Below the pieces are notes generated by a model. The model did not search any database and had not been told where the DNA came from. It was given only the letters and a program-made list of their open reading frames with translations. Both the position numbers and the translations under genes were made by a program. Below are positions 1-34,400 of a DNA stretch of 39,521 nt, piece after piece. Source of the stretch: Reclinomonas americana ATCC 50394 (taxonomy: Eukaryota); assembly GCA_048213135.1 (NCBI GenBank), contig PS015054.1, forward strand, positions 487,727 through 527,247, given 5' to 3'. Each line of letters starts with the position of its first letter. The stretch's first letter is position 1.

Positions 1-3000
1 TACCTTGGCCGACAGGCCCCTCATGAACTCGCTGAGGTACTTGTTCAGCTGGGGCGCGGTGGGGAGTGAGCGACAAAGAAGAAGCTTTGAGAGGCAAAAC
101 AAGGCGGTGAAAACCAAATCACCTTGGTCGGATTCAACATCGGGAAGAGTTGCTCCGTCCTGTCACAACACACACAAAAATCAGCACACACACACTCGCT
201 TCGAGACCAAGTGGGGATTTGATGCAAACGCAACGGTCCGACACCCTCTGTCAGCTTCACCAGGTTGTCGTAGACTTGCGGATCCACCTGCACCTCGTTC
301 TCGTACTTGATCGAGTCCTTGCCGAGGAACGAGAAGAACACTTTCCGATCATCGCGCAGATCCACGTGCTCGATGCGAAGCGAGCAGCAGCCGACAGTGT
401 CGGCCTCCTCCTCCGTGTCCTTTTCGCCACCCACACGCTGTGCGGCAACGACACACAAGTGAGCAAGGAGGCTAACAAGGGAAAAAAACTTCCTTGCTCC
501 CTACACACGCACCAGTGCCAAGGTGTCGATAAAGTACAACGCCGTAGCCCTCTGCATGGTGAACGGATCGTCCGATCGGAGATCCTTGCGGTTCTTCTTG
601 CGGATGCGGTCGATGATGAGCGAGAGGCGGCGGGCCTTGTCGAACTTCTCCATGTCGGCCCACAACTTGAACGAGCTCTGCGCCGACAGGAAGACGTACT
701 TGGTGCCGTTGAAGAGCGGATCGCGCCAGGTGGCTGTCCAGGTGACGGCCTTGTTGTGCACAATGCCGCCCCACTTGTGACCGGCTGGCGGCTCCGGAAT
801 CTTGGCCTTCTTGCCAATGTTGATGGTGATGTCTTCGGGGAACACGCGACGCTTGAAGCAGCCCTTCTTGGGGTGCTCGCCACGGCCACGGAAGAGGCCC
901 GGCGGCTCGATGCGGTAGTTGCCGTTCTTCTCCTTGCGGCCGTCCACGTACACCCACTTGTACTTTTCCTCGGCGGCCTCCTTGGCCGCCTTCAGCGCCT
1001 TCTTCTCCTCCTTGGACATGCTGTCGCGCTTCTCTTTTTCTCGCACGTGCCAGTTCCAGATCGGGTCAAAGTTGACCCAGTCGAGCCGCTTGATCGTCTT
1101 GCCCTCCTCCGTCTTCTTGAGCAGCGGCTTCCAGTCGTTCCAAAAGTTCTCGCGGAACTTGGCGTCGTTGTAGTGCGGCAGCAGTCGGAGCACCGCAAAG
1201 TACGTGCCCCACTCCTCCTGCTCGGGCGACAGGTGCACGTCAACCTGCTCGCTCGGCTTCTTCGGATCGCCGTACTTGAGCGGAATACCGTGTGGCTGGT
1301 ACTCTGGCGGGAACAGCACGCCATTGTGTTCGAGCGTCTCCCACTTCTGACCGGCCTTCTTCGGCTTCTTCTCCCAGTACTTCTCCGTGATCACCGGCGT
1401 CACGCCCTCCTCCTTCTTCGCCGCCGCGCCCTTCTTCTTGCCGGTGCCGCCTTCGTCGTCACCGTCGTCGTCATTCCTCTTGGCGCCCCTCTTGCCACTC
1501 TTTTTGCCATTCGCCGCCGCTGCGCCAGTGGCGTCGGTGGCGGCCGTCGGCGACCCACTCTTCCTCGGCATGATCGGCTGATCTTCGTCATCCTCTGACG
1601 AAGACGAAGCCTTCGACCTGCCATTGGCCTTGCCCTTCTTGCCGGCGGGCGCCGCGCGCTTGCCGACCTTGCCGGCCTTGCGCGAAATCGGCTCATCCTC
1701 CGAATCATTGTTGTTGTCGTCGTCGTCGTCGTCATCGCTGCTCTCCGCCTTCACGCCCCTCTTGCCCCTCTTTGCCTTCTTCTTCTCCTGCTTCAGCTGG
1801 CTCAGCGGCACATCCGAATCCGACTCCGCCTCCTCCTCGTAGTCCTCATCGTCCGCCGAATCCGACGACTCCACCATACGCGCCGGCTTCTTCACCACCG
1901 GCTTCGTCTTCTTCTTCGCGATCGGCTCATCGTCGGAGTCGTCCTCGTCGCTCGACTCCATCACCGCCTGCTTCTCGCGCTTCACCTGCGCCACCGTCTT
2001 CTTCCCCGCCGCCGGCTTCGGCTTCGGCTTCGGCGCAATCGGCGCATCATCGCTGTCCTCATCATCGTCGACCTTCATCTTCTTGACAGCAGCAGCAGGT
2101 GGCTTCTTCATCAGCGCCGCCAGAGGCACGTCATCGTCACTGTCTGACGATGACGACGACGACGACGAGGCATCATCGTCGACCACTGCGCGCACCGCTG
2201 ACACTGGCGACTTGACTCCATTAGGCGTGGACGGCTTGGCGCGCTTCATCAGCGGCGCATCCTCATCACTGCTGCTGTTGTTACGCTCCTGCGCGCCACA
2301 CACGTTGTGTAAGCACTGCACGCTCAACTGGTCAAGAGACAACTCACGCGCACACANNNNNNNNNNNNNNNNNNNNNNNNNNNNNNNNNNNNNNNNNNNN
2401 NNNNNNNNNNNNNNNNNNNNNNNNNNNNNNNNNNNNNNNNNNNNNNNNNNNNNNNNNNNNNNNNNNNNNNNNNNNNNNNNNNNNNNNNNNNNNNNNNNNN
2501 NNNNNNNNNNNNNNNNNNNNNNNNNNNNNNNNNNNNNNNNNNNNNNNNNNNNNNNNNNNNNNNNNNNNNNNNNNNNNNNNNNNNNNNNNNNNNNNNNNNN
2601 NNNNNNNNNNNNNNNNNNNNNNNNNNNNNNNNNNNNNNNNNNNNNNNNNNNNNNNNNNNNNNNNNNNNNNNNNNNNNNNNNNNNNNNNNNNNNNNNNNNN
2701 NNNNNNNNNNNNNNNNNNNNNNNNNNNNNNNNNNNNNNNNNNNNNNNNNNNNNNNNNNNNNNNNNNNNNNNNNNNNNNNNNNNNNNNNNNNNNNNNNNNN
2801 NNNNNNNNNNNNNNNNNNNNNNNNNNNNNNNNNNNNNNNNNNNNNNNNNNNNNNNNNNNNNNNNNNNNNNNNNNNNNNNNNNNNNNNNNNNNNNNNNNNN
2901 NNNNNNNNNNNNNNNNNNNNNNNNNNNNNNNNNNNNNNNNNNNNNNNNNNNNNNNNNNNNNNNNNNNNNNNNNNNNNNNNNNNNNNNNNNNNNNNNNNNN

Positions 3001-3439
3001 NNNNNNNNNNNNNNNNNNNNNNNNNNNNNNNNNNNNNNNNNNNNNNNNNNNNNNNNNNNNNNNNNNNNNGAGGAAAAATCTGGAAATGTCGCACACACTC
3101 TTCCTGTCTTACACGCACAGCGGCGTGCTTCTCCTCTCTGTCTATGTGGGTGTACGTGTGGGTCACACACTTGCACATCGTGCATGTGAGTGGGCATTTG
3201 TGAGCGTGAGTCTGGACTCGTGTTTATCCGCAATACAACACACACTCTTCTCTCTCTCACACACACACACTTCTGCTCACTCACCGCGTACACTTTCTCA
3301 CACACAGAGACACACACAATACACTGACCCACAAAAGTGCAAAAATACTCACAAATCACGGCACATTCTCTTCCTCTCTTCCTCTCTCTCTTCCTTCCGC
3401 ACACACATGTGCTCACTTACCTCCAATCACCGCCGGCAT
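1..3439 (-). CDS. TOP1: DNA topoisomerase IB, spliced; continues off the left edge; first exon tentative
   Basis: Motifs [78 protein letters not shown] follow a long Lys/Asp/Ser-rich N-terminus. The main exon is about 513-2288, with GT-AG introns at 438-512, 160-234 and about 50-122. A putative first exon (MPAVIG, donor gtaagt at 3420) lies beyond the N gap and needs further exon(s) in the gap to stay in frame. Confidence 0.97.
2357..3069. other. Assembly gap (N run)
   Basis: Run of N inside the 5' part of TOP1. Confidence 1.
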
Positions 3440-3836
3440 CCTTGCGGCTTTGTATGTGTGTATGTGTGTGTTTGAGAGCGGGACAGTCGCCATGACGTCA
3501 CTCGTGACAAATACGCATCTGTCCCACTCCGACGGTTAAATTTCCGGTTGCGCTCACACTTGTCTCCCCATTCTTCTCTCTCTCCCACCCTCCCTCTCTC
3601 TCTCACACACACACACGCGATCATGAGAGTCGCCTCTCTCTATCTATCTCTCCCTTCCTTTCTTTTTTTCGTCGGCTGAGTTGACTGTGCAAGTTGCGGT
3701 TTTCGTTTATGCGTCGTTTTTCCTGGCCACCGAGTTTTTTGTAAGGCAGTGACGAGCACAGACAACCCGTATAAGGTCCGCGTGCACTCCTTATTGCCTC
3801 CGTCCCACATCATCGATCGCTCACTCCACTGCACAG

Positions 3837-6800
3837 ATGTCCTCGCGCCCGTCTCTGCGTCGTACCTTCTCCGACATGCAAGAGCTGGACGCGTTCACCG
3901 CCGACTTGTTCCAGCAGAGCAGCGTCGTTGCCGCACCAAGCAAGCAGCCGTCACTGATGATGATGAGCTCGCGATTCTCGCCGATTGGTGGCGGACGCTC
4001 GGCGCCTGGATCGCCGACGTCGAGCTTTATGCGTCACCCACAACAGCAGCAGCAGCAGCAGCAGCATCAGTGGTCGACATTGCTCGGCAGCAGTCGTCCG
4101 GGATCGGCGGCTTCGTCGCCCTGTATGCCGCACTTTGGATTGATTTCGCGCTCCTCCAGTCCGGTATTGAAGCACGACGAGGAGCACAGTGCGATGATGG
4201 ATCAGTTGCTGTTGCATCACCATCACCACCCGATGCTGCTGCAGCAGCAACCACAGCAGCAGCAGCAGCATCAGACGTTGTTGCCGCCACCTCCGGCGGC
4301 ACCACCGGCCAAGGCCGAGACGGCGGACAGCATGGTGTGCACGATCAGCGGGCCGTCGACCAGCGTGCACTCGCCGCATCACCACCAGCATCAGTATCAG
4401 CACTATCAGATGCCGCAGCAGCAGCAGCAGCAGTTCCAGCAGCCGCAGCGACCGTCGGCACCGCCGAGCCCGCAGCACATGCCGTTTATGATGCCGGCGA
4501 CGCCCGTGGCGCAGGTCACGACGACGATTATGAGTGGCCAGGCACCGTCGCGGCCAGTGGCCTCGCGTGCGCTGAGCAAGTCGCCGCCGACGCCGCTGCG
4601 TTTGCCCGGACGTGATGGCATGACTGCGCCGTCGTCGCAGTCGGCGTCAGCGGCCGTGTCGCCGGTGCCGTCGTCACCACCGGTGCCTTCCATGTCTTCG
4701 TCGACAGCGACGACGACGACCACCGTCGCCACTGCGCCGGCACCCACCATGTTGCCGCCGCCGTTCCAGCATGCGCACATGCAGGCCGAGTATGGTGCCG
4801 AGCAGCAGCAACCCTACGCGACCATGTACGGCTACCCGGCGTACTTTTCACAAATGATGCCGCCGCCACCGCCGCCACCACCGTTCATGCCGAGCTCGCA
4901 AGCGGTGTGTAATGCAGTGCCCACTGCGCTTTTTAAATCCTGTGTGCTTGACTACTCACTTTTTCCCTTGCGTCTCTACAGAACTCACCGCCGCCGCCAC
5001 CGCCGCCGCCGCCGCCAATGACCATNNNNNNNNNNNNNNNNNNNNNNNNNNNNNNNNNNNNNNNNNNNNNNNNNNNNNNNNNNNNNNNNNNNNNNNNNNN
5101 NNNNNNNNNNNNNNNNNNNNNNNNNNNNNNNNNNNNNNNNNNNNNNNNNNNNNNNNNNNNNNNNNNNNNNNNNNNNNNNNNNNNNNNNNNNNNNNNNNNN
5201 NNNNNNNNNNNNNNNNNNNNNNNNNNNNNNNNNNNNNNNNNNNNNNNNNNNNNNNNNNNNNNNNNNNNNNNNNNNNNNNNNNNNNNNNNNNNNNNNNNNN
5301 NNNNNNNNNNNNNNNNNNNNNNNNNNNNNNNNNNNNNNNNNNNNNNNNNNNNNNNNNNNNNNNNNNNNNNNNNNNNNNNNNNNNNNNNNNNNNNNNNNNN
5401 NNNNNNNNNNNNNNNNNNNNNNNNNNNNNNNNNNNNNNNNNNNNNNNNNNNNNNNNNNNNNNNNNNNNNNNNNNNNNNNNNNNNNNNNNNNNNNNNNNNN
5501 NNNNNNNNNNNNNNNNNNNNNNNNNNNNNNNNNNNNNNNNNNNNNNNNNNNNNNNNNNNNNNNNNNNNNNNNNNNNNNNNNNNNNNNNNNNNNNNNNNNN
5601 NNNNNNNNNNNNNNNNNNNNNNNNNNNNNNNNNNNNNNNNNNNNNNNNNNNNNNNNNNNNNNNNNNNNNNNNNNNNNNNNNNNNNNNNNNNNNNNNNNNN
5701 NNNNNNNNNNNNNNNNNNNNNNNNNNNNNNNNNNNNNNNNNNNNNNNNNNNNNNNNNNNNNNNNNNNNNNNNNNNNNNNNNNNNNNNNNNNNNNNNNNNN
5801 NNNNNNNNNNNNNNNNNNNNNNNNNNNNNNNGTCGGGCATGCCAACGGCCGCGTACTATGGCATTCCGCCGCCACCGCAGTTCCACTATGCGCCGCTGTC
5901 GGGCGACAACGGCATGCCTGTCGCGACGCAGCAGCAGCAGCAGCAGCCGACCAAGGGCAAGCGTCGCCCGCCACCGTCGCACAGTGGTGCACAGGTGCCC
6001 TTGGCCACTGTGCCGCAGGTCGCCGACAGCCTGCCGCCGGTTGCGCCCTCTGGCGGTGCTCCGTGCCACGTGTCGTACAAGACGAAGCGCATGGGCGGCT
6101 GGGCGGCCATGCCGCGCGAGCTGTCCGCCGCTCACACCCACTGCATCAAGCTGACGTGTGCGCTGTCGGAGGCGGGCACACCGGTGCCGAGCCAGATCAA
6201 GTTCCGCATGCACATTCTCAACTGCGTCGAGGAGGTGGACGAGGTCGTCAACGTGCTCGACTCCACCAACCCCCTCCGCGGCTACACCGAGTCGCTGGTG
6301 GTGACGGCCGACGATTCGGAGATTATGGATGTGGAGCTCAACGACGACGTGGTGTCGGTCATCACCAAGTTCAAGCTGAAGAAGGTGCCGCGCAGCCGGT
6401 GCCCGCAGCTCCGCTTTGCCTTCATCTTGACGGACCAGAGCACCAACTTCTTTGTGTGCATGCTGACGGCGTCGTTCAAGTTCTTCCAACGCACCACTGG
6501 CGGCACCGNNNNNNNNNNNNNNNNNNNNNNNNNNNNNNNNNNNNNNNNNNNNNNNNNNNNNNNNNNNNNNNNNNNNNNNNNNNNNNNNNNNNNNNNNNNN
6601 NNNNNNNNNNNNNNNNNNNNNNNNNNNNNNNNNNNNNNNNNNNNNNNNNNNNNNNNNNNNNNNNNNNNNNNNNNNNNNNNNNNNNNNNNNNNNNNNNNNN
6701 NNNNNNNNNNNNNNNNNNNNNNNNNNNNNNNNNNNNNNNNNNNNNNNNNNNNNNNNNNNNNNNNNNNNNNNNNNNNNNNNNNNNNNNNNNNNNNNNNNNN

Positions 6801-7030
6801 NNNNNNNNNNNNNNNNNNNNNNNAAAAGGTGTACGAGCGCACTGGTGCGCATGCTCGTGGCGACAATGGCGAGCCGCCGCGGAAGCGCCAACGCTCCACG
6901 TCGCGCTCCAACTCGGCAGCCTCCTCCCCGACACAGGAGTACGAGGAGGCCTACGAGACGCAATCAGCAGCGCCGCCGCCACCACCACCGCCACCACCGC
7001 AGCAGCTGCAGCAGCAGCACCATCATCACA

Positions 7031-7065
<35 letters not shown>

Positions 7066-7419: not shown

Positions 7420-10400
7420 TCATCTCTTCGAGCGCTTCCGCGGTGGTGCATCCTCGTCTTCCTCTTCCACGCGACTGCCGCTATCGTCATCGTCGAGGAG
7501 GCTCTCGTCGTCGTCGTCGGCTGCATCCTCCTCGTCTTCTTCTTCTTCGAAGCGGCGCCGCTTGTTGCCGGCGAGACGCGGTGCAGTTGCTCTTTCCGCT
7601 TCCTCTTCTGCATCGTGCAGGAAGTCGTCATCGTCGTCGTCGTCGTCGTCCTCGTCGGCACTCGGCTGCGGCTGAGACGACGGAGCTGGCTTGCGCGGTC
7701 GCGGCGCGGCACGGGGAGCGGGTCGCTTCTTGATCTTCTTGCGCTTCGTGCGCTCTTCCTGGCTCCATGCGTCGTCACTGCTCTCGTCCTCCTCCTCCTC
7801 CTTGCCACCGACCTCCTCCTCGTCGTCGGTCTTGACCAGGTCCGACAGATCGCTGTCGTCGTCGTCGTCGTCATCGTCGTCGTCGTCCTCATCATTGTCA
7901 CTTCCACCATCGCCGTCCTCCATGGCAGCGGCCGACTGCGGCACCTTGCGAAGCACGAGTTTGTTGCCGCCACCGGCCACCGGATTCTTGCGTGGTCGCC
8001 CTCGTTTGCGCTTCTCGGTCGACTCGACGGCTTCGGCCTTGGCCTGCCGTTTCGCTTGCGTCATGGCTCGCCGCTGTCGTCGTGAGCCGGGAGCAGCCGG
8101 TGCCAGTGCCTCGTCCTCCGCTTCTTCTCCTCTCTCCACCTCAGGCTCGGGAGCCACTGCCGACACTGTCTCCGCCGCCGCCATCGCCGCCGACTCGGCA
8201 CCAGCGTCCGCAGTCGACGCCCCCTCGCTTTCGCCAGCTTTGACGGTGGGGGTGCCGCGCGGGCGACCACGAGTGCGCCGCGGTTCGTCAGCAAGTGCAC
8301 TGGGCTGTGCGTGTGTGTGCGTATGTGAGTGGCAGCATGAGCGGCGCGACTGTCAACAAAATAGGACATGGAAGTGACGAACCGGCAACGGCAGGGGCTC
8401 GAGACCGTGCTTGGCACGAATCTTGTTGATGAGCTTGGCCTTGGTGCGCTCGGGATCGGCCGAATTGTAGATCTGCAAGTGGCGTGCTTCAGCGTGTGTA
8501 TCACTCACCCGCGGGACACCGACGAAAAAACAAAACGCACCCGATCCCACTGCGCATCGGTCAACTGGTCCGAGTACATCACCGTGTCGCGGACGCGTTT
8601 GCCACGACCCAAATCCTGCAGCTTCGGCTTCAGCTCCTCCGCAATGGTGGTCTCGGCATGGCGAATCCAGTCTGGCAACTCCCAGTCTTGCATCAGCCTG
8701 TCCACGAAACAAATGAGGACACCGAAAAAACATGCATGCATTGAGGGCGTGCCATCTTGCCGTACCTCGGAGCGCCACCTTCGGGGACACCACGACCCAT
8801 GTCCACCCACGTGCGCAACCGCAGCTCGTCGAGTTCCTTGTCAAGCTGTGCGGCATTCACAGAAGGTGAGAAGCCACAATCGAAAGGACACACAGACATG
8901 CAGCAGATTGACCTTGGCAAACAGGATTTCCTCGTCGTCGTTGCGAGCCAACATCTCGTTCAGCTCGTCGTCGTCCAGCAACCGCTGGTCGTTCTCTGTC
9001 GTGTTCTCGTTGGAAAAGATGGCACGCTGCACGGGAGGAAATGAGTATATTTGTGAGGAACGGAGGTGCGTAGTTATTGGTACGCACCAGCAGGTCCTTG
9101 CGCTCCGAGTCGGCCGACTGTTGATTGAACTTGCCGGCCTTGATGACCTTGGCCTCGGCTTGCCGCTTCGTCGTGGCCTGCTGGAGCACGCGTTCCTCAA
9201 ACACCGTGTTGGTGATGAACGTAAAGACGCGCACTTCGCGAGTCTGGCCGATGCGATGAGCTCGCGCCTACACGCCACGTGGTGAGAGCACAATCCACAT
9301 TTGCAAACGAACAGAAGACGCTCACCTGCGCCTGCAGATCCTGCTGCGGATTCCAGTCCGAGTCGAACAGAATGACCGTGTCGGCAGTCTGCAGATTGAG
9401 GCCGAGGCCACCGGCGCGGGTGGAGAGGAGGAAGATGAAAATGTCCGAGTCCGGTGCATTAAAGGCCGCCATGATCGACGGCCGGTCTTCGCTCTTGGTG
9501 GTGCCGTCGAGGCGGCAGAACGTGTAGCCGCGGTACTCGCAAAACTCCTCCAGCAAATCGAGCACTTGCGTCATTTGGCTAAAGAGCAGAATCTACACAC
9601 AGCACCAAGTGTGAGTACGCGACTGGCAGGTGAAGAGTGGACAACACCCTCCCACGAAACTCGATGTTTGGTGCGCGCATACTTGTAGCAGATGCGGTCC
9701 AACAACTCAAACTTGCCCGAGGAACGAATGAGGTCCTCCACGCACAGGTCGAGATCCTCCTCCACGTGCAACAGAGGGTGGTTGCAGACCTGCGGAAATT
9801 GATGAGCAAGGCACCGCACGGGAGATGGGGAGAATGAACACAGGCAAGGAAAGAAGACCTTGCGCAGTTGCATCATGCGATTGTTGAGTGCCTTGCTCTT
9901 CTTGCCTGTGTTCTCCGAGTTGGTGATGACGCGGCCGGCCTCGGTGATCTGCTTGTACAGAATCTGCTGGAGTGCCGACATGTCGCAACGCAAAATGATC
10001 TCCACTTTTTCGGGCAGCTGGCCGAGCACCTGTGGAAGGGGAGTGAGGAAAGTGAGACGACGCGGAAAGAGGCCAACTTTATGCACGCCGGGAGCGTACC
10101 TCATGCTTTTCACGTCGCAGGATAAAGGGACGCAGCACCGAATGCAGTTGCCACACCAGAGCCTCTTCGACTTCTGGATCTGTCTCCACCTGCGCGAAAC
10201 ACCTTAGACCGGATCGACAACTTGCGCCCCCCATTCTTGCCAAGCTCAAACCTTCTCGCCAAACAACGGCGACTGGAACCACTCCTCAAACTCGGTGGCA
10301 TTCTCGAAAATGTCGGGCAGGCAGAAATGCAACAGTGCCCACAGCTCGTTGAGGTTGTTTTGTAGCGGGGTGCCGGTGAGCAGAATGCGGTGCGAGGCAC

Positions 10401-12871
10401 GCAGTTGATTGAGGTTCTTGACGAGCTTGCATCCGGCGTTCTTGATGCGATGGCCCTCGTCGATGATAATGTGGCGCCACATTACTTTGCGGAACGCCGG
10501 CAAATCCGTGTCACGCAACAGGAATTCGTACTGCAATGGTGGTGGTGGTGGTGGTGGTGGTGGTGGTGGTGGTGGTGGTGGTGATGGTAAGGAAGAGTGG
10601 AAGCAATGCAGGGAGCTTATCTTGTACAAACATGCGCACCTGCGTGATCATAATGTTGAACTTGCACTCGGACATTTCCACGGCCGCGATGCGTCGGCGT
10701 TCGTCCTTGTTGCCCTTGTACATGACAAAGGTGAGCTCGGGCGCCCACAGACTCAACTCCGACCGCCACGTGTCGAGCATACTGCGTGAGAAGTGAGAAA
10801 AGAGCAGAGCAGAGCAGAGAGAGAGAGAGAGAGAGTGGTGGCCTCGAGACGCAACGCGCACGGCACGACAATCAAGTGCGGGCCCTTGATGCCCTTCATC
10901 TCGTTCAGGTACGCCAACAGCGCAATGGTCTGGATGGTCTTGCCGAGACCCATTTCGTCGGCCAAGATGCCATTGAGATTGTTGTTGTACAGCGACACCA
11001 TCCATTGCAGACCGCGGAGCTGAAGGCCGACAGATATTAGACAAGAATGGAAAGGGCGAGGAAATAGAAAGACAGCGAGATATGAAGAACGAACGAACGC
11101 ACCTGGTACTCCTTGAGCTGTCCGCCCACCAGCATCTTCGGCTGCACGGCAATCTCCTCGGCCTCCTGATGCGTCTTCATGTAGAACTCCTTGGTACCTA
11201 CAAGCGCCTTTGTCAATACGACGCACATCAACAAACAAAAAACGATGAGAACGGAGACGCACCGACACCCTCTGGCGGCACATGCTCCTCCTCTCCGTGC
11301 TCTCCACCCTCGCCACCGTCGCCAGCCATGCGGGCATCGTCACTGGCACCAGCAGCGGCTCGTGCCGCGTCACGCTTCTTCACAATCATGGCGGAGATAC
11401 GAGCCATACAAGTCTCGGTCTTCTCAATGAGTTGCACCAGGCGCGTCTTTTGGGCGTTCTTCATCAGTGCCTTGTATTGCTCCATGTCGGTTTCCTGAAG
11501 GAGAGGTCACGCGGGTCAGATGGGTGGGAGAGACGAGGGGAGATAATGCATTTGCACTCAACTCGCAACAAGCGGAGACGCTCGCGTTCCTGTCGCTGCT
11601 GCTCCTCCAGGCGTCGACGCTGCAGCTCCACCATCAGATTCTGCATGGCGCCGGCCAGACGACGGGCACTGCTCGTGCGGTCCGTCCATCTGCGTGCACC
11701 AGTCGTTAAAAGTGAGAAACCATACACCGATTCAAAAATGCCCACGCCTCGCCGATCACGTACTTGCGCATGAGATTCTCACGATGGCGTGCCACCGAAT
11801 CGAGAAACACGTGCCGCTTGCTCTGCACGGCTCGCATCTGCTGCTCGCGAACACGCTGTGACGGGCGACAGAAGTGAGTCCACACAAACACACACACACG
11901 AGCAGACGCCTTTCACGGTCCACACCAGTTCACGCTCGTGCTTCTGCTTGACCAACTGCACCGCCTTGTCCTTCTCGTCCAACATGTGCTGCAAAAGGAG
12001 AGAAAATGCGCGCTCAGACACCCTTCTTCACACATGCAACATGGTGGTGATTATTCGCACCTGCAGATGCAAGCGATGGCTCAAGCACGTCGGATCGAGC
12101 TTGGCGGCGTGAGCCGCCAGCAACTCGCAGCGCGTGAGGTACTGCACGAGTCGCATCTCCACCGTGCGCTTCTCGGACAGAAGCGTCTCGCGCAGCGACG
12201 GGCACTCGATAGTGGGGATCATGGCTGTGAAGCAGGTGAGGCGGGGTACAAAAACGAAGCACGTGAAATGAAACACAAGCGTGTCGACCTGACAGTTCTG
12301 CAACTCGTCGCTGGTGCGAGTGAACAATTTGCTGATGTCGCTCCTCGGTCAGGTTGTGTGCGGCACGCAGCGATACATACGAGGTAGCCATGTTTTCCGT
12401 GTCGCGGAAGGCCGTGGCTTCCAAGCCAGACGGGTCGTTCTGGGTGGAGCGCAAGGGACAGATGAGGTCGGAAAACCGCAAGTGATGCACCCCGCCACAC
12501 GCACCGCACGGATGCCCTGCAACATGCCCGTCTGCGCCAGCTTCCACTCACGAATCTGGTCAGCCACCGCCGCACGCTGCGTGTCGGTGAGCGGATGGCG
12601 GTTCGCTGGACCCCAGACGGTGAGAAGATGCACCAAGCAACGAAGAGGGGGGCGGGAGACGTACCACTGCTCTGCAACGCCTGCGCGTGCAGCTCAGCCT
12701 CACGTCGCTCGAGCAAGTCCAGCAACGCGCACAGCGTCTTGCACTGGCGCATGGCGGTGTGCACGCCGGCTTGAGCGAGCGCCGCCACCATCTGCGAAGG
12801 GAACGGGAAAGCGATCAGGAGAACGAGGGAAGGACTTGTCGTTTCTTCCAGGGACGCTCTCTCTCTCTCTC

Positions 12872-12923
<52 letters not shown>

Positions 12924-17800: not shown

Positions 17801-20404
17801 ACGGACTCCTCGAGTGGCCACCTGTGTGTCGCGCACGAGGGTGGGTCTCACAGACACAAGCCAGTGAGTGGTCGCGTAACTCACCTGCCAGCGACTGTAC
17901 ACGCGAGTGCCCTGAAGATGCTGCTGCTGGTGGTCCTGCAGCAGCAGTGTGAGTCAACTGCACTCAGCTGTCGATTCTGGTGCGCCAACACACACCATCG
18001 GCAGGGACAAACGACGATGACCGCGAATGACCTGCATTCAGAAAATGTGTGAGCCAGTGTGAAACCGCGGTCGTGATCTTGCTTCGCCTAACGTACCAGT
18101 TGGCACACTCGACTGCGTGCGGGAATGCATGCCTGCAAGTACAAGGCTGCGTCAATAACCACGCCTGGTGACACATGAGACAACTAGAAAACAACAGACC
18201 TGAGACGGGCGACCCACCTGCAACACCGACGCAGAGGTTCTGTGAGATTCAACAGCTATACGATGGGGGGGAAGCACGCACGACGTCTCACGCACCAGTG
18301 GCCGCAGTGGACGAGGGAGCACGGGGTGTCTCATCCTCGGGTGGTCGCAGCAGAGTTTGTGCGAGGTACACCACAAGCTGCTCCAACGATCGCTCCTGGA
18401 TGTCGGGTGGGTCGTCGGGAGTGATGACGGCTGATACGCACTCGTCAGGCACACAGGAATATGCACACCCTTGACCAGGTTCACACAGGCACACGCAACG
18501 AAAACCAACTTCCGGATCCAACAGTGGCAGAGAACTTTGACGCGGCAGTGGAACACTGGGGCGGTCGCCTTGCAGTGGTGGCGGCGAGGCCAGTGGTCCC
18601 AGAATCGCTTGGTGCATGGACGACGTGACGGTATTTGCTGGATGCAAATGCGACGTATCCAGGTGTGACTCGGTCGCCGCTTGCTCGACCAGCGACGGCG
18701 AGCGAATGAAATCCGTGGAAAACACGGCCACCGGCTTCCCCGTGCGTGGTGCATACTTGGCCTGGCCAATCATGGAGGCTGGAAGTCCGGAAGCGGCTTC
18801 CGCCTGCTGGATTCGATCGATGTCGCTACATGGCACGGCGGAGGTGAGAGTTGAGACCACGAGGGAATGACACGCGCTCATCGTATGCGAAGAACTCACC
18901 GAGTCGCCTCAGCCATGACACTCTTTTCGAGGGCGGTCGACAGGCGTCCTACGGGCTGCGGTGGCGGTGGTACCGACTGTGACCTGTTGGTTGCAGTGCC
19001 GTTGACAGAGATTGCAGAGTGTAGTTTTTGTCGCACGCGAGAGACTGCGCCGCTGTTGTCTGCGGGCGTCCAGCTGGCGGCGGTGGTCGTCGTCGTGGCG
19101 GTCGTGGCAGTGGTGGTGTTCGACCTTGACAGGTCGAACGACACTGTGTGGTGCTGCTGCTGTTGCACCTCAGCAGGCACGCGACGGGGTGGAATCATGG
19201 CGGCAACCACTTTGCGCATCACACCATTGTACGCGGCACCGTCTGGCGAATCGGTCACCAGCGACAGCGGCGGCGACGGCGGCGATCCCACGCTGCTGTT
19301 GCTCCCCATGCCTCCCAGCGGCGGCGACGACGGCGGAGAGGTGGCCAGGAGCGGTGGCGAGCTCGGTGGCGACGAGTATGCCGGAGTCGACGCGCCTGTC
19401 GAATCCCCTGCACCAGATGCCGCTGCCGCTGCCGCAGCTGCCGCCGCCGCCGCCTGTCGCTGTGCATTTGTCGGCGACTTGCGCGTACCGATAATGTACT
19501 GGTGCAGCTGTGTGCCGAGAACCGATGTCGGCGACGTGACTCCTGGCCCGGCTGCCACGGCCGTCGAGGCGGCATGCTTGATCTGTCGCGCCTTCTCCAG
19601 CGCCTCCGGACTCTCCTTCGAACCGATCGCAGTGATCATATCGCTGATGGACTCGCTGAGGCGGCGCGTAAACGTCGAGCGCTGACGACGGCGACCTTTC
19701 TTGGTGGCGCTGCCACCCGCAGCTGCCGATGACGACGTGGGCGTGCTGGGTCGGTGCGACAGACTGCGCGTGGGCGACGGCGAGGAACCGGTGGGCGAGT
19801 CGGGCGAGTGGCGGTTCGAGTTCTCGAGCTGCGCGCGCTGCAACGCGGCGGCACCCTTCTCGCGGTACTCCATCGTCATGTCGCGCTCCACGTCGCGGCT
19901 GGTGAGACTGCGGGGAGAGCGGAGGAGAGTGAATATCGAAGACCGTTTCGTTCTGATTGTCGTGCGTTGCGCGCGCGCAACTAGGAGTACATGGCAGTGT
20001 CGGCCTTTGCTCTCGCGCGAATGCGGTTGGCCGCGGGCGAGATCATGCCACGCGAATTCCATCCTGATCATCATAAAGACAAGTGTCACATCGGCCTCTC
20101 AGAGCAATGCACGGAGAATGTGAGGGCGAGGGAGCGAGAGGCGCGCAACTGGAGCACAGCTTCTCGCTGAGTCGCACGAGCTCCTCGCGCTTGCCCTCGA
20201 TTTCCATCTCCACGCACTCTTGCACGATCCGTTTGTCGACCGCTGACAGCGGCTGGAGAATGGCAAACCGCTCATGCGTGAGTGAGTGAGAGAGGCGCGC
20301 GCGCACGCACACGCACACGAGTGCGTGTGAGAGAGTGGCAACGCAACGACATTGAGAGGCACTTTGAGAGGCCCATTGCGTTTCACGGGTTGCGCCTTCT
20401 CCAT
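14807..20404 (-). CDS. CCDC87: CCDC87-like coiled-coil protein, about 20 introns
   Basis: C-terminal domain QRLEDMWEMLLMPD...WSEATEMVLAREKALRMLESFE...DPRR...LEEETKR...GCVLSYNGVPYQEKMRADYQELQFQLEQYR matches my recollection of the CCDC87 C-terminus (QRLERIWSVLEVPD...RE.LL..LE.FE...GRPYLDKMKRD..EML..L.Q). Exons splice in frame from MEKAQP at 20404. Confidence 0.75.
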
Positions 20405-22740: not shown

Positions 22741-22746
22741 TCATAC

Positions 22747-23797: not shown

Positions 23798-26700
23798 ATG
23801 GAGGAGTCGGAAGAGGCCGTGGCTGCGCGCACTCTTGTCGCCGAGTGCTGTCGCAAGTTCTACCGCGGCGAGGCCACACTCGTCTGCTTTGTTGTCGCCG
23901 TCACAGACGCTGGCATGGTCAGTCTTTCTCCCTCCCTCTCCCTTGCACTCACACTCTGTCTCTCACGCCTTCTCCGTGCCACAGCTGGGCATCCATGTGG
24001 CATACGCAGTGAGTAGTGACGATACACCATCGCCAGAGACCGTGGTTCGCGTGGCACAAGAGTGGCTGCATGCGACGTCTGGAGGAGAGGTTTTACACAA
24101 CGTGGTTGTCGAGTTGAGCATGGACTCTCCTCCCACTCACTTGGTCGCACTGATGCAGCATATCCGCTTCTTGCTGATGCGAGTCGGCCTCTCGCCACTG
24201 CTCGTTCAGTGCGATCAGACACCCGTCAGTGTCACTACCACGCCCTCGTTGGTTCTCGAACACGTCTGTCGCATGATTGGCTTTGCAGAGGTTCCCTTCT
24301 TGATGAAAACACACACGACCACTGTGCAGTGGAGTCTGTTTGCATCACTCACACACACTGTGGTGGAATCGCTCCCAGGCCATGCCTCCCGGAGAGTACG
24401 GTATCTTGTCGTCGGACGAGGAGGTGGCGCAGCAGCTGGAGCGAGTGGCGAATGAGTTGTTGCGGGTGTCGGCTGGCGAGGAGGCTGTGGTGTCACTGGT
24501 GACGCAGTTGTTGGAGAAGCGGGGAGCGCCTGTGTCGCGGTATCGTATCTTTCGGGCGCTGACCAAGCTGCGCTCGACGACGGGCAAGGTCGAGCCGACG
24601 GCACTGGCGGATGCGTATGATAGTTCGTCGCCGTCGCCCATGCCCGATGGAGCGCTGGGTCCCTCTCTCATGGCATCCATGGTGCCGGTGACTGCCTCTC
24701 CGCTGGGAGCCCCACAGTGCGGTGCTGTTGCCGGAGTCGCTGACATGACAGAGGTGGAGTAATCGAGGGAGGGAGGGAGGGTTAGATGGCAGCCGCTGCA
24801 GTTTGCTCACTGTCTCTGCTGGGCAGGTGGCGTTTCGTTACCTGGACAGCCAGCAACTGGTGGTGCCGTCGTCGCTGGTCGAGGTGGCCATCGACATGGT
24901 GCAATCGGTTGCGAGTGAGTCGTATACCACCGAGACGTTTGGGCCCGCCGTGCAGGCATGCATTGCCTCGCTTCCGTACTCAGAGCAGCTTCAAGTTGCG
25001 CATCCCACAAGCACTTATCACACTATGAGTGGGTGCCTGACTCGCGATTGTGTGAGGCAGACGCTGCATTCGATGTTTGGTGATGTGCTGCCGCACGGGG
25101 ACATTAGCGACTTGGTGGCTGCCACCGACGGCGACTTGGTCATGTCGGTGAGAATGTGCACGCATAAGCTGCGCTCGCTCGACCAGGAGGAGTTCCAGTC
25201 ACAGCTGCAGGGAGCGGAAGCAATGGGGTGAGTGCGATTTCCCCCTCATCGTCGTGATGAATGGTTTCCAACAATGGTGCACAGGAGGAGCTTGTCGGCC
25301 AGCAACGAAGCACTTGGCCTGTGCGTGCATCTCCTCTTGCTTTGCACATGTCGCCGTGGCTCATTCGCTCTCCTCGGTACAGACAATTAAAACAGCTGAC
25401 CACGGAGCTCGAGACGGCGCGGGTGTACACGTGCGTATGGACGTGGAGTTATGTGCCTGGATGAGTGCCGTCGCTCAGACACACGCATCGCAGTGCCCGT
25501 CTCGAACAGGATATGGCAATGATGCAGGCGCGACTCGTACAGGCATTATCGACAGCAGCGGCAGCAGCGACCGCCGCAGCGCCACCACCATCAAAGTTGC
25601 TTGTCACTGCGGTGATTCTGCATAATTCTGCCACCACTCACCGCGTGTCGCAGAAGCGGCTCTCCGTCGACGGCACGGACAGACGCATCGCGATCTCCAC
25701 GATCATCTGCGGCACCGCCGGCCTCGGCTTCCGTCACCGAATCCATGCACGCACTCCTGTCTCGCCTGATGTCGGCCATCAAGGGATCGGCCGATGAGTC
25801 GGCTCTCCAGCGTCGCTTGTTCGTATGCCCCTGCAGTCTAGTGGATGTCGATCATCGTGTCGCTCACTCGACACACAGGGAAGAAGAAATCCAGCGATAC
25901 TGCGTGCTGTTGGAGTGGCCGGCGGAATGGTGCGTCACTTCTGCCTCCTGTCTACCATCGATCTCTGTTTTTCACTTCACACACAAACAACAGGGAGCGC
26001 GATCCCGATCCGCATCGGCTGATTCCCATGGGTGAGTCGCTCACTTTGATTGCTGCACTCGCGCTGCACCTCCCTCATCGTCTCTCTGTGCAGATGCATC
26101 CATGGGCTGCCAGTTGGTGGAGCTCGCCACCAACGGCGCCGAGTATACGCAGGTGGCAGAGCACTTTGTCAAGTCGCAAGGACCGCGGCAGGAGTTGTAC
26201 ATTCGGCGCATGTACCGCATCCAGAACCACGATGTGTATCGTCGGTTCGCCGTGCGAGCTCGTTGCGTCTGATCCATCTCTCCAAGGTCCCTTGGTGGTG
26301 GCGCCACTGACCGCGTTTCGTCCATGTTGCAGAGGAGGTGGCAAGAGATGTCGGCAGCAAGACGATTTGGGAGCCTGGTGTGTTGCAAACGCTCTTCCAC
26401 TGCTCACGAGAACCAGAATCGCTGCTGCGCAACGGCTTCGACGTGCGGTACGGCCGAGGTGGTCGGTTCGGGGCCGGTGTGTATTTTGCGCTGAATCCAC
26501 TACTGAGCAACAAGTACGTGCCGGCGTGCACGGCACACGGGTTTGTGTCGTCTGAGAGCACGCACCCACTACTGCGCCTGCCAGTCTGCTGATCATGATT
26601 CGCGCGTGCAGAGCCCGAGATTGCCACCAGTGCGACAGCATCATGTTCACGGCGGTGGTCGCGTTTGGCAAGTACCACCACATCAGCAGCTTGACATGTG

Positions 26701-27160: not shown

Positions 27161-30100
27161 ATGCGACTCAACGCACTCACCGTCACCGTTCTCACGCTGA
27201 GCGGTCTCCTCCTTCTCCTCTTTCTCCTCACGCGATCGCCCTCCAATGATCGCGACCCTCAACCGATCACAGTCACTGTGCCAGCAGCTCCACCACCACA
27301 ACAACTTCAACAAGCACACAGTCGCCAGTGGACACACATGAGCAAGCTGCTTGCGCAAGTGCGCCAAGTGCGGGAAGAGGCGCGCGAGCTGATGCAGCGA
27401 GCGCACGTGTTGCAGCATGTGGGAAAGGGACTGCAGACGAGTGTTGACAAGGGTATGTGTCCCAATCACTCTCTCTCTCTCGCCCTCCTGACTCTCTCAC
27501 TCATTCGCTGATGGCCGCAGTCGCCACTGCGGCAGTGACGGTGGCAGAGTCGCCTCCTGTGGTGGACACGCGTAGCAGTGAGCCTGAGGCGACTGAGGAC
27601 GCACCTGCAGAAAGGGAAGAGCAGAAACCACCAACAACAGCAGCAGAGGAGGAGCAGCAGCAACAGACTGCGATGGAAGCAGTGGAGGAGACGAGTGGCA
27701 GCAGCACTGAGTCGCCACCTGCAAGCGATCCCACGCCACCTGCAGCGAAGAAACAAGGTCGATTGCAAATCGCGCATATAAGGACACGTGGAGGATGTCT
27801 GTTGCTGACTTTTACTCCACAGACGACACTGCACTGGAGTTTGCACGACTGTTTCCCGATCTTGGCGACGAGTACTTGTTCACGCGGTACACGCCCGACT
27901 CGTTTCCGATTGCGCTGGTGGCCTACAATCGACCGGATTACCTGCAGCGCACGTTGCAGTCGTTGGCGGAGGTGGACGGGGTCGATCTGAAGCGAGTGAC
28001 GGTGTATCAGGATGGAACCGACACGACCGTGGCGGCGGTGGCGCGCATGTGGTCGCAGCGTGGAGTGCAGCTGGTGCAGCGTGATCGGCTGGAGTCGTTC
28101 AGCGAGGGCGCGCAGCACATTGCCACGATGTACAAGTATGTGCTGACGCATATATTTTACAATAATCCCACGGATGAGGTGCGTGGAGGGGGAAGGGGTG
28201 GAAGGGTAAGGGAAGGAGGGAGGGGGAAGGGGACAGAGAGAGGGAGTGGGTAAGTGGCACAGTCACGCGAAGAGTAGCAGCTTCACAGGGAAGGGTAGAT
28301 GAACAAGAAGAGTGGCACAGCCACGCGAAGAGCAGCAGCATCCGTACGTGCGACGCCATGACAAGGAGAGAGACTTAGGTTCACAAGGGAGGGCAGATCA
28401 ACAAGAAGAGTAGCAACCATACGTGCGACGCCATGCCAAGGAGAGAGATATAGCTTCACAATGGAGGGCAGATCAACAAGAAGAGTGGCACGGTCGCGAC
28501 AATAGCAGCAACCGTACGAGCGACACCGTTACACGGATGATGGCACGGTGAGAAAGGGACACACAACTACACGGCGATAGGGAGAGGGACGAGGATGAAT
28601 GAGCACAGCAACACTTGATGGGGCGCGGCGACTGGGGAGGGAGAGAGGAGCAGGAAAGCGACATAAGAATGCACTGCAACCGTTCGCGTGATGCAAGGAA
28701 CACGGAGAGAGACAGCGATATGGGGAGGGATGCAGCAGCATGCCCTGACGTGGACAGCAGTTAGCGGCAGAAGACTGTGCACCTACCCTTTTCCTTCATC
28801 TCACTCACCTCCCCCTTCCCCTAACGCAGTACGCTGTCATCATCGAGGACGACATGCTGTTTACACGCGACTTCCTGCAATACTTTGCACAAATGGCGCC
28901 CATCATGGACCTGCCACCGAATGCCATGCAACACGTTGCCACGGAGCCGGGCGGGCGGCGTCGTGGCTCGGGAGAGCGGTGGGACCGATTGCGCGGAGAG
29001 GAACCAGAGTATTCCAGCAAGACGCCCAGTGCGCCCGAGGCGACGAAACCCGGCGAGCGGCCACGACCACCGCCGATTCCGCCATCGGATCTCGAGTTGC
29101 GTGTGCGCACACACACCAATCCATGCCCATCTCAACTGCGTTTTCCCTCACGTGTCCGCTGGCAGACGCACCTTTCCACGCAACGGCGATCCCACCGTGC
29201 TGGCCATCTCGGCATACAATGACAATGGCTTCACCGACACGGTGCGGTACGTGGACAATGTGCACCGCACCTCGTTCTTTGTCGGTCTCGGCTGGCTGGC
29301 GTCGCGGCGTATCTTTGGCACGGAGCTGCTGCAAAGATGGCCCCGCAATCACTGGGACCATTGGGTGCGCGAACCCGGTCAGCGGCAGGTGTGTGTGTGT
29401 GTGTGTGGTCGCTGGAAGACTTTGCGAGCCGCTGTCTTGCTGACGTTCCTTCCAGGGCCGTGTGACGCTGTTTCCCGAAGTGTCACGCGTGTATCACATT
29501 GGCGAGCGCGGAACGCACTCGGGCGGTGTCGACTATCAGCAATTCTTCGGCAACATCAAGTACGAGCAGACGCTGGAGTCGCCGTTCCGCTGGCAGCTGT
29601 TCCGCGAGCACGACTACGATGAGCGCCTCGTGGCCTCCATCAAATCGGCGGAGAGCGTGATCAGCGTGGAGCAAGTGCTGCCTCTGCCGCGACTCTCCAC
29701 CGTTGTGTTGTGGTACGAGTCGCACAATGAGAATGTTGCGTTGCTAAGGCTGCGACTCCATTGTTAGTCGTTGTTCATTTCTCCTTGTGTTGACACAGGA
29801 TTCAATCTGGCGCTTCATCGGCAAATACTTTGGCTTGTGGCCGTCGACGCCGGTGCGTGGCGAGTACAAGGGCGTGATGGAGTTCTGGTGGGCGGCGCGC
29901 CACATCTACTTGATCGGCTCGTACAGCGTCTTTGTGCAAGCCAAACCCGACAGTGTCAACTTTATCACCTCGTCGGAGTGGTACAAGGTGCGCTGCGTGT
30001 CAACGACGAGTGTCTTTACGAAGTCGTGGATCTGACCGCCTCTCGGGACCAGCTGAATGCGCCGCTGTGGTTCCCAGGCATGCCGACCGCGTCGGCCACA

Positions 30101-30600: not shown

Positions 30601-31458
30601 GAATTAATTGTACTGGATATGGAAAAGGTGATGAGTACTCGACGAAAGCGGGTATGTGGGAGAAGGGTGTGAGTGGGAAAGGCGGGAGGGAGAGAGGGAG
30701 GGGAGACAGCACAACAGGATTTGTAGCGAGCCACGCAAGGTGATACAGATATATATCGATATCGTGATGACCATTTTGGTGGGGATTCAGAAGAGAGAGC
30801 CGCAATGCACGTAAGTGGTGTTAGAGAAGAGCGAGATGGGAAAGAACAGCATAGCCAGCAAGCCAAGGTGGAGTGCAGTTCACGCAGGTGCTCGGGGCAA
30901 TCGCAAGAAAGGAACTGGGGATTGTCGTCCAGCTACAGTGCGTAACTCACAGTGAGACTGATAGCCTCTTGTAGCAGCACGACGGGCTGTACATGCCGCT
31001 TGAAGGCGAATGCAGCTGCATGCAGCCTTGCAAACACGACTGCACCGAACGAATGGCGATTGTAAGAGCTCGAGGAACCGCGAGGTGAGAACAACAACAA
31101 CAACAGGAAACATCTCGTGACTCGCGAGGGCCCCACATAGGCACACCCACCTGCAGTCAGCGCGCGGGCCCGCAACTGCAGTCACCACGTGCACTTGCAA
31201 GTCAAATTGCACCCAAATTCTCCGGTCACGAAGCTCAAGTCGCCCTCAAGCGCACCTCAATTCCATCAGCACGCGAGCTCGCCCACCTCTGTGCGCAACC
31301 ACTACAAACCGGAATATGAGAGGGCGGAGAGAGAGAGAGAGAGAGAGAGCGGAAGCAGTTGCTTGACAACGAATTGCTTGATATACAACAACGGAGAAGA
31401 CTCGCGCGCGCGTTTTGTGCCACTCACACAGAAGTTGTTCTTCTCGCACAAATAAACA

Positions 31459-34400
31459 ATGTCGATGCGACGCACACTAGTCGCACCAACCACTGAGCGC
31501 GGTAAGTCGCACACACACGCACGCACACAACACACAACGCGCACAGTAAAAAAGCTTGAATTTGAACTCACACAAGTATGTATTTCCCCGCGCCCTCTCT
31601 CATGCACTCTCCATCTCTCACACTACTCTCTTATGCTCACTCGTACACGCACACACACCACTCTCATTCTCTTGCTCTCACATGCACTCATCTCTGCATC
31701 ACATGCAGCGGAGCTCTCACTCTTTGCACACTCTCTTTGTACGCAAGCTCTTTGCACACACACACACACACACGCATTGCACACTCAATGCCGGGCTCTT
31801 GCATTCTCAATTCCTTACTCACGTCTCTCTCACTCTCTCTTCCCTCTCTTCTCTCTGTTACAGGCCGCTCGCGCACTCCATCACCCAACCGCAGTCGCAG
31901 CAACTCTCTTGCCTCACCCGAGACACTCCCACTGGGAGGCGCTCTGCGCTCTTCTGCTGCAGCACCCTCAGCCGCCGGTGCTGCCGCCGCTGCTGGCTCC
32001 CCGGCCGGCTCAAGTGGCAGTGCAACACTGAAGCAGTCGAGTCCAGTGGGCGCTGTGCTGGCCTCCTCGCAGCATGTGCGACGTGGCTCGGCGCCTACGA
32101 CGATTGGGTCGCCGTCGTCGCCTGTGGTGAGTGCCATTGCTCTGCTTGTGCTGCTTGGAACTTGCGCTCGTCTTGCTGTCAGGCGCGCGCTCCTCCCTTT
32201 ACTCATACGCGTGCTGGGTTCATCTTTCAATCTTGTCTGTACATTTCGCGGAACATGTTCTTCTTGCTTGTCTGGCGCGCTTTCCGCTCTCTCACACTTC
32301 CTGCGCCACCCCTCCTTCTCATCCTCCTGCTCTTGCGCGCTCATACGCGTGTGTGCCTTGCTTCCAATCTTGTTTGTGCATTTCGCGGAACACGTACAAC
32401 TTGCTTGTCTGTCGCTCTTCCTCTCTTCTCTTCCTCCGCGCGCCTCCTCTCCATGCGTATCCACATGCTCGTTGTTCAAGTCGTGCTCTCAATACCGTTT
32501 GTGCATTTCGCGGAACATTCTTGAGTGGCACCTCATTCACTCATTTTGTCGTCATTTGTTTGAGCACTCCCCACCACACACACCCTCCTCTCTCTCTCTC
32601 CCCACTCGCTTTCATCTTCCGATGCTCGCTTGCTCGCTGGGGCGCCTCTCGCTTTCTCGGGATTCGATAAACATACTTGTGCGTGGTTTCGGGGATTCTT
32701 TGATTCTCGCTCCGTCTCACTTTCTTCCGCTCGCTTTCATTGCTCACCGCCTCCTCTCCCACACACAGTCCGCCGGCGGCAGCAGCAGCTCGTTTGCCGG
32801 TCCGCGTGACGAAAAGGACTTGGTGTTCCCCGAAACACCCATGTCGACGGCAATGGAGATTCTCGGCGATCGGCAGCAATGGGCGGTGGCCGACACGCAA
32901 GCCATGGTCCAGGTGCTGACCGAGGCCGAAATTCGCACAGTGGCCGACTTGAAGAAGGCCAAGCCCATGCTGGGCATCTTTGGGTTGCAAAAGCCGGTGG
33001 TCGACGCCATTGGAGAGTACTTGGACACGTGCATGCGTGGTTTGTTTTGTTCTTTCACACACACACACACACAAAGTGGAGAGCGTCCTCATTTCTTCTT
33101 CTTGTTGTTCTTGGTCCAGATGCCCCGCCAATGAGTGCGGCGGAGGTCATTGCGCAAGTGCTGGAGCGTGGCTACGGCACGCAGTCGGAGGCGGGCGGTT
33201 TTGTGGAGCTGGATCCGGCACACATTGTGAAGAAGCGGCCAGTGGGCTCGGGCACATTTGGTGATGTGTACGAGGGTCGAATCGGTGAGATTCCGGCGCG
33301 AGTGGCCGTGAAGGAGATCAAGCAGGTCGGCACCGATCACACAGTGTTGCTGCGGGAATTGCGAGCCATGTCAAAAGGTGAGCGTAGACGGGAAGGGAGG
33401 AGGGGCACTGAGATGGAGGGTGCGCTCACGCCTCTGGTCAGTGTGTTCTCAAGAAAGAGACGCTTGTGTGGTGCGGGCTCTCTTTCTTATATGTCGCGTC
33501 TTGAATCTCGTGCGTGCCCTCTTTCTTGTGCGACACGTGCGGAGCGCGTCGTGTCTTGTGAGCGCTCGACTCCTCTCTTTCTTTCTTGTGTGAATGGTGT
33601 GTCTTTGAGTCTCGTGTATGCGCTCATCGCTGCCATGCCCTCTTTATTGTGACCGAAAGTCTTGTGCCTCGTGCGTGCTCTCGTCGCTGTTCTTCCCTCT
33701 TCCTTGTGCGACCTGCAAGGAGTGCGTCGTGTGTTGTGTCTCGTGTGTGCACTCGTGCCCTGTTCGTGTGGCCTGCGTTGAGTTCTCAAGTCTTGCGTCT
33801 CGTGTGTTCACTCTATTCCTTTTTCTTGCGTGACATGTGTCGTGTCTTGCACCTTGTGTGTGCGCTCACTCCTCTTCTGTCTTTTTTGTGCCACCTCACG
33901 TGTGTTAATTCATTCTCTAATCTGCCTTTATCGTGGTATCCTGTCAACATCTGGGTGTGTTTGCAGCTGACATTGTTATTACCCTCTCCCTCCTTTCCCG
34001 CAGTGCCCATCGAGGGAGTCGTGGGCCTAATTGGCGCATGTACGAACACGGGCGGCGATGCCACCAGCCCCTACTACATTATTACTGAATTCATGGAGTT
34101 GCGTTTCGACGACAAAAGTCCACCGCAACCTTTCCCCACTCCCGCATCTCACCCTTTTTTTGTCCCCCCTCCCTCTCCTCCTTCCGCTTACAGTGGCGGA
34201 TCACTGGGCGACTGGGTACACAAGGGCAAGGGCTTGCAAGCGTCGCCCTTTCAAAAACTCGTCATTTGCTGCTCGATTGCCCACAATATGGGCGATTTGC
34301 ACGCGAATGGCATCTGCCACCGAGACTTGAAGACGGAGAACATTTTGATGGACGCCTCGTATGCTCACCCGAAGGTGGCCGATTTTGGCATCTCGCGCGT

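Follow-up and report, generated by a model that had tools for sequence, protein, structure and literature searches.

Shifted-register atypical human 5′ splice sites are reportedly the subject of work by Roca and Krainer in 2009, as summarised by Tan et al. in 2016, and sites of the bulge +2/+3 register are said to have been treated by Roca et al. in 2012. Both shifted and bulged registers of U1 small nuclear RNA (snRNA) have been proven in human cells, where the sections of the study used here put the noncanonical registers together at 1.5–2.1% of 201,541 5′ splice sites, with the validated ones covering about 1.5%, and predict the +2/+3 bulge register for 68, or 54 once curated, of the same 201,541 (PMC4856993, Table 3). 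In the present work, a stretch of 39,521 nt from Reclinomonas americana ATCC 50394 (contig PS015054.1, positions 487,727–527,247 of the forward strand; hereafter the window) was analysed, for which the first-pass annotation had proposed that 13 introns start with GTTG[CA]G[TC], i.e., with the ordinary GTG[CA]G[TC] donor displaced by one base (offset donors). All results rest on this window and on protein homology, the splice junctions being predicted from genomic DNA. Judged on this basis, the offset donors are a real and distinct class within the window.

Compared with the described systems, the introns of this class start with GU and carry the consensus one base downstream, as do the human shifted-register sites, at which U1 is thought to pair with a displacement of one position, the cut itself remaining at the GU (PMC4856993, sections used here). 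The human class is rare and has the core AAG, whereas here the core is GCG, the class makes up 4 of the 12 homology-verified introns and it is known from sequence alone. Human bulge +2/+3 sites likewise have a U at both +2 and +3 and read as a consensus into which one nucleotide has been inserted (same source), but the class in the window lacks the G at −1 that the bulge register should favor. At the STAT3 tandem donor, U6 is likewise able to work one position off, although that case concerns a single human tandem site and suppressor snRNAs (PMC11162779, in the part used here). A protist precedent for more than one U1 is the diplonemid S. specki, with two U1 genes of different 5′ ends; its donor logo is, however, G/GT or (G)/GTATG, not GTGCG, and the sections covered mention no offset class (PMC12621601). 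As with U12-type introns, a second donor class stands beside the main one. In full-text searches, no printed description of GTTGCG or GUUGCG as a donor word was found, the papers listed giving primer-like matches only; the supplements of the papers cited may list such sites.

The strongest evidence comes from junctions fixed by homology in the genes for a type I topoisomerase (TOP1) and a SNF2 protein, for which 120 and 150 homologues were gathered, respectively. For each junction, all in-frame, stop-free pairs of a GT donor and an AG acceptor were listed and their translations scored against the homologues, other dinucleotides lying outside the test. The TOP1 junction 234→160, combined with 122→49, ranked top of 1041 GT..AG structures, being best or tied for 29 of 40 homologues with a mean score of 104.3 against 99.0 for the runner-up. 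In SNF2, 10855→10782 was the sole best junction in 30/30 homologues (margins of 8–12 in the first eight), and 11562→11495 was the best in all 72 homologues that match the region (mean 83.6 vs. 60.0). An ordinary-looking in-frame GTGCGC at 10861, only 6 nt upstream of 10855, was beaten in this scoring and would cost a length-conserved helicase motif two residues; the first-pass annotation had listed 10855 among the sites with alternatives, and homology now supports the offset donor. The two sites (window 10856–10861, − strand) could also be a tandem donor pair with a two-residue variant. Beyond the 13 proposed sites, a further member emerged at 9660→9593, sole best in 29/30 SNF2 homologues (margins of 14–15 in the first eight). 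Removal of the introns at 234, 10855, 11562, and 9660 restores both the frame and the homologous protein; for 34098 the data agree with such a restoration, and for the other introns it concerns the frame. The offset core, one base deeper than usual, is thus present in these four of the 12 homology-verified introns as three GTTG[CA]GT and one GTTTCGT, and the last exon base separates the two groups completely, with G at −1 in 8/8 ordinary and 0/4 offset introns (exact p = 1/495).

Concerning the motif itself, GTTG[CA]G[TC] is present on the proposed strand at all 13 coordinates (12 GTTGCG[TC] and one GTTGAGT), with UU at +2/+3 in 13/13 and a near-invariant C at +5 (12/13); GT opens the intron in 13/13 and AG closes it in 12/12, no intron being assigned for 18499. 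The window holds 41 copies of the motif (17 on the + and 24 on the − strand), most of them non-donors, so that its presence alone says little; GTG[CA]G[TC] occurs 226 times. Use as donors was examined with a donor-blind parser that chains exons. Its score combines profiles of the 3′ splice site and the branch motif with intron length, codon usage and the openness of frames, and at the 5′ end it demands only GT; nine verified introns, no proposed site among them, served to train the 3′ models. It regained 10 of the 13 sites. GTTGCG ranked first among its enriched donor hexamers, with 9 of the 24 sense copies serving as donors (hypergeometric p = 2.4e-6, Bonferroni 6e-4), followed in the enriched set by GTGCGT (11/48 copies used) and GTGAGT (7/22), while the antisense control of the same parse gave no significant hexamer. 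With the same predicted donors, a position-independent donor model expects 0.62 GTTGCG where 9 were observed; the offset donors are therefore, as the first-pass annotation had held, a separate class and not the tail of one donor profile. Offset and ordinary motif-bearing donors numbered 12 and 36 in this parse, i.e., about a quarter were offset, and since the parser overcalls, its counts are rough. Other parser designs were less useful. An earlier version with codon usage only placed donors poorly. Codon bias is weak, and the charged TOP1 exon had the largest part in it. The full model, when self-trained, did not settle (95–131 introns, 5/8 verified introns regained), and a later self-trained run, which is partly circular, returned 12/13 proposed sites and only 8/12 verified introns.

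The exon side of the junction also differs between the classes. Ordinary donors had been said to follow mostly G and offset donors not, and in the donor-blind parse G stands at −1 in 25/36 GT[GA][CA]G donors but in 0/12 offset ones (p = 1.9e-5). The last exon base of the 13 proposed sites is A in six, C in five, T in two and G in none, a spectrum without significant difference from that at −2 in ordinary donors (A14, C9, T6, G7; chi-square p = 0.35). A at −1 is enriched in used offset donors (7/12) over unused motif copies (5/31, p = 0.0099). The resemblance of the −1 spectrum to the ordinary −2 fits the proposal that intron G+1 takes the role of exon G−1. The first-pass interpretation is partly supported on the whole, shifted pairing to a standard U1 being weak (see below). 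A sequencing artefact that adds a T was rejected by argument, since no correlation with the −1 base would be expected of it.

In their other features the offset introns are ordinary. YTNAY occurs within 45 nt of the 3′ end in 12/13 of them (9–39 nt before it) and in 7/8 ordinary verified introns, against 0.26 of random 40-nt windows, and their lengths (64–96 nt) lie within those of the ordinary comparison set (58–109 nt). The mean local score between intron interiors was 8.41 for offset–offset (66 pairs) and 8.37 for offset–ordinary comparisons (156 pairs; p = 0.42). The interiors share no extra similarity, and therefore the class is one of signal and not of a repeated element; introner-like or transposon-derived introns were rejected on the same lack of extended similarity. 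The U12-type donor consensus is [AG]TATCCTT, which none of the 13 donors resembles, and U12-type introns were likewise rejected, no search for minor-spliceosome snRNA having been made. All features are collected in Table 1.

Table 1. Offset donors, homology-verified ordinary donors and other gene matches in the window (exon bases in lower case; fractions are homologues in support).
Feature	Window position	Strand	Length (nt)	Donor	Phase	Donor-blind parse	Remarks
TOP1 intron, offset	160–234	−	75	c/GTTGCGT	2	recovered	CTGAT 22 nt before 3′ end
SNF2 intron, offset	10782–10855	−	74	c/GTTGCGT	2	recovered	
SNF2 intron, offset	11495–11562	−	68	a/GTTGAGT	0	recovered	
SNF2 intron, offset, beyond the 13	9593–9660	−	68	cga/GTTTCGT			CGT at +5 to +7
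Kinase intron, offset	34098–34193	+	96	a/GTTGCGT	2	recovered	within hinge motif
GNT-I-family intron, offset	29096–29165	+	70	a/GTTGCGT	2	recovered	
GNT-I-family intron, offset	29735–29798	+	64	t/GTTGCGT	0	recovered	
PARP-gene intron, possible, offset	24995–25060	+	66	a/GTTGCGC		donor recovered, with acceptor 25056	
PARP-gene intron, offset	26262–26332	+	71	c/GTTGCGT	1	not recovered	
Intron in gene without recognisable homologues, offset	16141–16205	−	65	t/GTTGCGC	1	recovered	
Proposed offset donor	18493–18499	−		c/GTTGCGT		missed by both parses	no intron assignable; unsupported
Intron 3 of gene from ATG 20403, offset	19908–19981	−	74	a/GTTGCGC	2	recovered	
Intron 2 of gene from ATG 20403, offset	20064–20149	−	86	a/GTTGCGC	1	recovered	
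Intron 1 of gene from ATG 20403, offset	20271–20347	−	77 (or 95, to 20253)	c/GTTGCGT	0, by reading	not recovered	
SNF2 donor, ordinary	11102	−		cag/GTGCGT			14/30
SNF2 donor, ordinary	10639	−		cag/GTGCGC			30/30
SNF2 donor, ordinary	10099	−		gag/GTACGC			7/30
SNF2 intron, verified	9790–9858	−		aag/GTCTTC			sole best in 28/30; margins 23 (first 8)
SNF2 donor, ordinary	9325	−		cag/GTGAGC			29/30
SNF2 donor, ordinary	9087	−		ctg/GTGCGT			22/30
TOP1 donor, ordinary	512	−		ctg/GTGCGT			117/120
TOP1 intron, verified	49–122	−		aag/GTGATT			
Prenylcysteine lyase	35255–36589	−					E 8e-26 and 7e-16
RSE1/DDB1/CPSF1-type protein, first beta-propeller	37480–37923	+					E 7.5e-5
GT2 glycosyltransferase, weak match	27711–28250	+					

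For the proposed sites outside TOP1 and SNF2, the support is uneven. The kinase donor 34098, which had been placed by its conserved surroundings, does fit the register of the domain: residue 2 of the downstream exon corresponds to position 83 of the Pkinase profile, residue 88 of the Chk1 chain aligns to query residue 68, directly before GGSL, and the only in-frame rivals give introns of 219–237 nt. By contrast, the conservation claimed around SDLE-RTFP in the GT13 gene fails, the roughly 60 codons before 29096 being an insertion relative to the GNT-I profile (upstream piece at profile positions 195–227, downstream piece at 221–294, overlapping at 221–227). Because the exon end falls in an insertion with no profile counterpart, conservation lends 29096 no support, and it is favored over two other phase-2 GTs (28979 and 29009, giving introns of 187 and 157 nt) by frame and length. 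The insertion itself (28911–29095, + strand) is of low complexity and may be a lineage-specific loop or partly intronic. In the same gene, the six in-frame rivals of 29735 give introns of 94–169 nt, and a PDB search with the GT13 pieces returned one weak match and otherwise none, with no usable continuity at 29735. As for the PARP gene, 24995 was another of the sites listed with alternatives; it has seven in-frame rivals, and because the frame stays open on read-through, there may be no intron here. The exon downstream of 26262 matches tankyrase and Pfam PARP, while the upstream exon has no Pfam match, its PDB pieces gave chance matches only and a homologue search with the PARP exon was empty; the support that the first-pass annotation had drawn from RRFAVRAQEV was thus not reproduced. 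Rivals of 26262 are GTCGGTT at 26241, picked by a parse of the same design, and GTGCGAG at 26252, i.e., 10 nt upstream, which goes with other acceptors.

The remaining five sites belong to sequence labelled CCDC87-like in the first-pass annotation, a label for which no Pfam match was obtained, the homologue search with the ORF at 16886–17953 (− strand) being empty. For 16205, read-through gives a frameshift, and with any of the four rival GTs in frame the intron would measure 119–200 nt; CTCAC lies 20 nt before its 3′ end. The gene that starts at ATG 20403 (− strand) has, as read from the sequence, GTTGCG at the start of each of its first three introns. Among these, 20149 has no other in-frame GT for its acceptor, 19981 has a single in-frame rival (GTACTCC at 19990), and 20347 has three and was regained only after self-training of the donor table; CTCAC repeats lie 9–13 nt before its 3′ end. 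The last of the sites known to have alternatives, 18499, is unsupported; all three upstream frames are open. The long exon at 18899–19907 (− strand) encodes an S/P/T/A-rich low-complexity protein with poly-A/poly-T.

The window is intron-rich, with 58% G+C over non-N bases. Three runs of N (2357–3069, 5026–5831, and 6509–6823; 1834 bases) break up the TOP1 gene and the interval between TOP1 and SNF2. A scan of the window against Rfam returned no family. The short introns 10531–10639 and 10782–10855 (both on the − strand) contain microsatellites, namely an extended (CCA)n tract and a (CT)n tract. The TOP1 core (504–2354, − strand) has a nearest protein of at most 54% identity, with top matches across plants, fungi, a jakobid, and kinetoplastids, and its best solved structure is the Leishmania enzyme. 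A metagenome scan with this core gave eight loci, the best at 49% identity, and thus no close relative for comparison; the lineage appears poorly sampled. As lineages for the window, diplonemids were rejected for their donor logo GTATG and Andalucia for its paucity of introns.

How such donors might be read is a separate question, on which we infer every statement about snRNA pairing. The standard U1 5′ end is ACUUACCU. The reading that we favor, at a probability of about 0.5, is that the offset introns are U2-type GT-AG introns which carry the same core UGCGY as ordinary G/GUGCGY introns, one nucleotide deeper (H/GUUGCGY), and that U1 reads both in the same register. Aligned from the 3′ side, H/GUUGCGY and G/GUGCGY differ only at the ordinary +1 slot, a geometry shared with the human shifted register. 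The U1 5′ end would bind ordinary and offset donors alike in one register; in the latter, intron G+1 would occupy the usual place of exon G−1, U+2 would be a single mismatch and the remaining U-G-C-G-Y would pair as in ordinary donors, whereas the later steps (U6, U5, Prp8), which would require the GU, would move the cut upstream by one base relative to its usual place. Pair counts to a U1-type 5′ end are higher in the shifted than in the canonical register at 12/13 sites and equal at one; these counts and the energies given below were computed with a human-type U1 5′ end, which may not match that of this organism. Several observations weigh against this reading or against the counts behind it. 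By nearest-neighbour energies, GUUGCGU gains only 0 to −2.3 kcal/mol whether the register is canonical, shifted or +3-bulged, whereas the verified ordinary donors reach −4.1 to −11.3 kcal/mol; the shifted-register duplex is below zero in only 5/14 sites, and GUUGAGU alone attains −5.2 kcal/mol. Given near-zero energies for GUUGCGU, a standard U1 would be bound weakly by a mere shift of register, and the prevalent C at +5, which would mismatch a standard U1, is hard to explain in this way. A test on 3′ signals only had little power, with p = 0.13 for sense GTTG[CA]G compared with the remaining sense GTs and p = 0.008 compared with its antisense copies. G is rare before unused sense copies of the motif as well (5/31; p = 0.3 against used offset donors), for which reason the zero count at −1 is a loss of the preference for G, avoidance not being demonstrated. 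The donor-blind parse called 140 sense-strand introns, 92 without a recognisable donor word, and reproduced 8/12 verified introns exactly. Finally, three of the 13 proposed sites (18499, 20347, and 26262) are without independent support.

Because of the weak duplexes and the nearly constant C at +5, a second U1 or a re-tuned one stays a candidate. It might be a U1 paralogue with a changed base facing the ordinary +1 slot; alternatively, the only U1 might be re-tuned to G-C-G, whereby UGCGY by itself would make a strong site when offset. We consider such a lineage-specific snRNA unlikely. In its favor, hardly any stable duplex forms between the standard 5′ end and GUUGCGU, whichever the register, and a top-enriched donor word with C at +5 suggests pairing to a C-G-C-containing partner. 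Few eukaryotic RNA segments are as conserved as the U1 5′ end, which speaks against it, as does the fact that GUGAGU (14) and GUGCGU (18) are both common ordinary donors in the donor-blind parse and are both tolerated by a standard U1; the ratio of C to A in the core, 12:1 in offset and 22:14 in ordinary donors, is not significant by estimate. One diplonemid with two U1 genes of different 5′ ends offers a precedent (PMC12621601, sections covered). The stronger statement that the genome would have two donor codes, with about a fifth of introns using H/GUUGCGY and read by their own or a re-tuned U1 rather than by slippage of the standard one, is graded as equally unlikely. A bulge would place G+1 and U+2 in the normal register, with one U of +2/+3 extruded and GCGY pairing as +3 to +6, at the U1 and perhaps also the U6 step. 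The invariant UU fits this, the +3-bulge register outscores the canonical one in possible pairs at 13/13 sites, and the +2/+3 bulge register has been validated experimentally in human (PMC4856993, Table 3, sections used here). Nevertheless, the bulged register would still profit from a −1 pair, so G should stay as favored there as in ordinary donors (25/36), yet it is found in 0/13, and the energies are no better than those of the shifted register; we regard the bulge as improbable.

Little probability is also given to a recognition that is mostly independent of U1, in which a protein or the U6/U5/Prp8 stage would read GU and the downstream GCGY, with the offset reflecting flexibility there. 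The donor aag/GTCTTC at 9858 has no likeness to the consensus beyond GT, and donor recognition in the window tolerates a very weak signal on the intron side if AAG closes the exon. The use of this donor and of aag/GTGATT at 122, both verified and almost free of consensus, would agree with such recognition, as would the near-zero duplex energies of the offset class and the shifted U6 register reported for a human tandem donor (PMC11162779, in the part used here). However, both of these donors keep the exon-end AAG that is absent in the offset class, and so sharp a motif of 7 nt would be unexpected without a sequence-specific reader. It might also be that most of the sites are not donors and that motif-guided hand annotation picked the word up from GT- and GCG-rich sequence. 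The abundance of the motif, with 15 of 24 sense GTTGCG copies unused in the donor-blind parse, the three unsupported sites and the open read-through at 24995 point that way. On the other side, four offset donors were fixed by homology without reference to the motif, the donor-blind enrichment is missing from the antisense control and a branch-like motif is present in 12/13 offset introns, which leaves this explanation very improbable.

Off-register 5′ splice sites have so far been a small human fraction, treated as tolerated noise around one consensus. A genome with an offset signal as common as each ordinary donor word would change this view and make the recognition register an evolvable, mainstream property; in the window the signal also has its own exon-end preference, and its mainstream status would rest on these 39.5 kb. 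Gene finders trained with a single donor profile would then set a considerable fraction of this genome's exon ends wrongly, as exemplified by 10855 and the GTGCGC 6 nt upstream of it, and the organism would offer a natural system for how U1, U6, and Prp8 agree on the point of cleavage.

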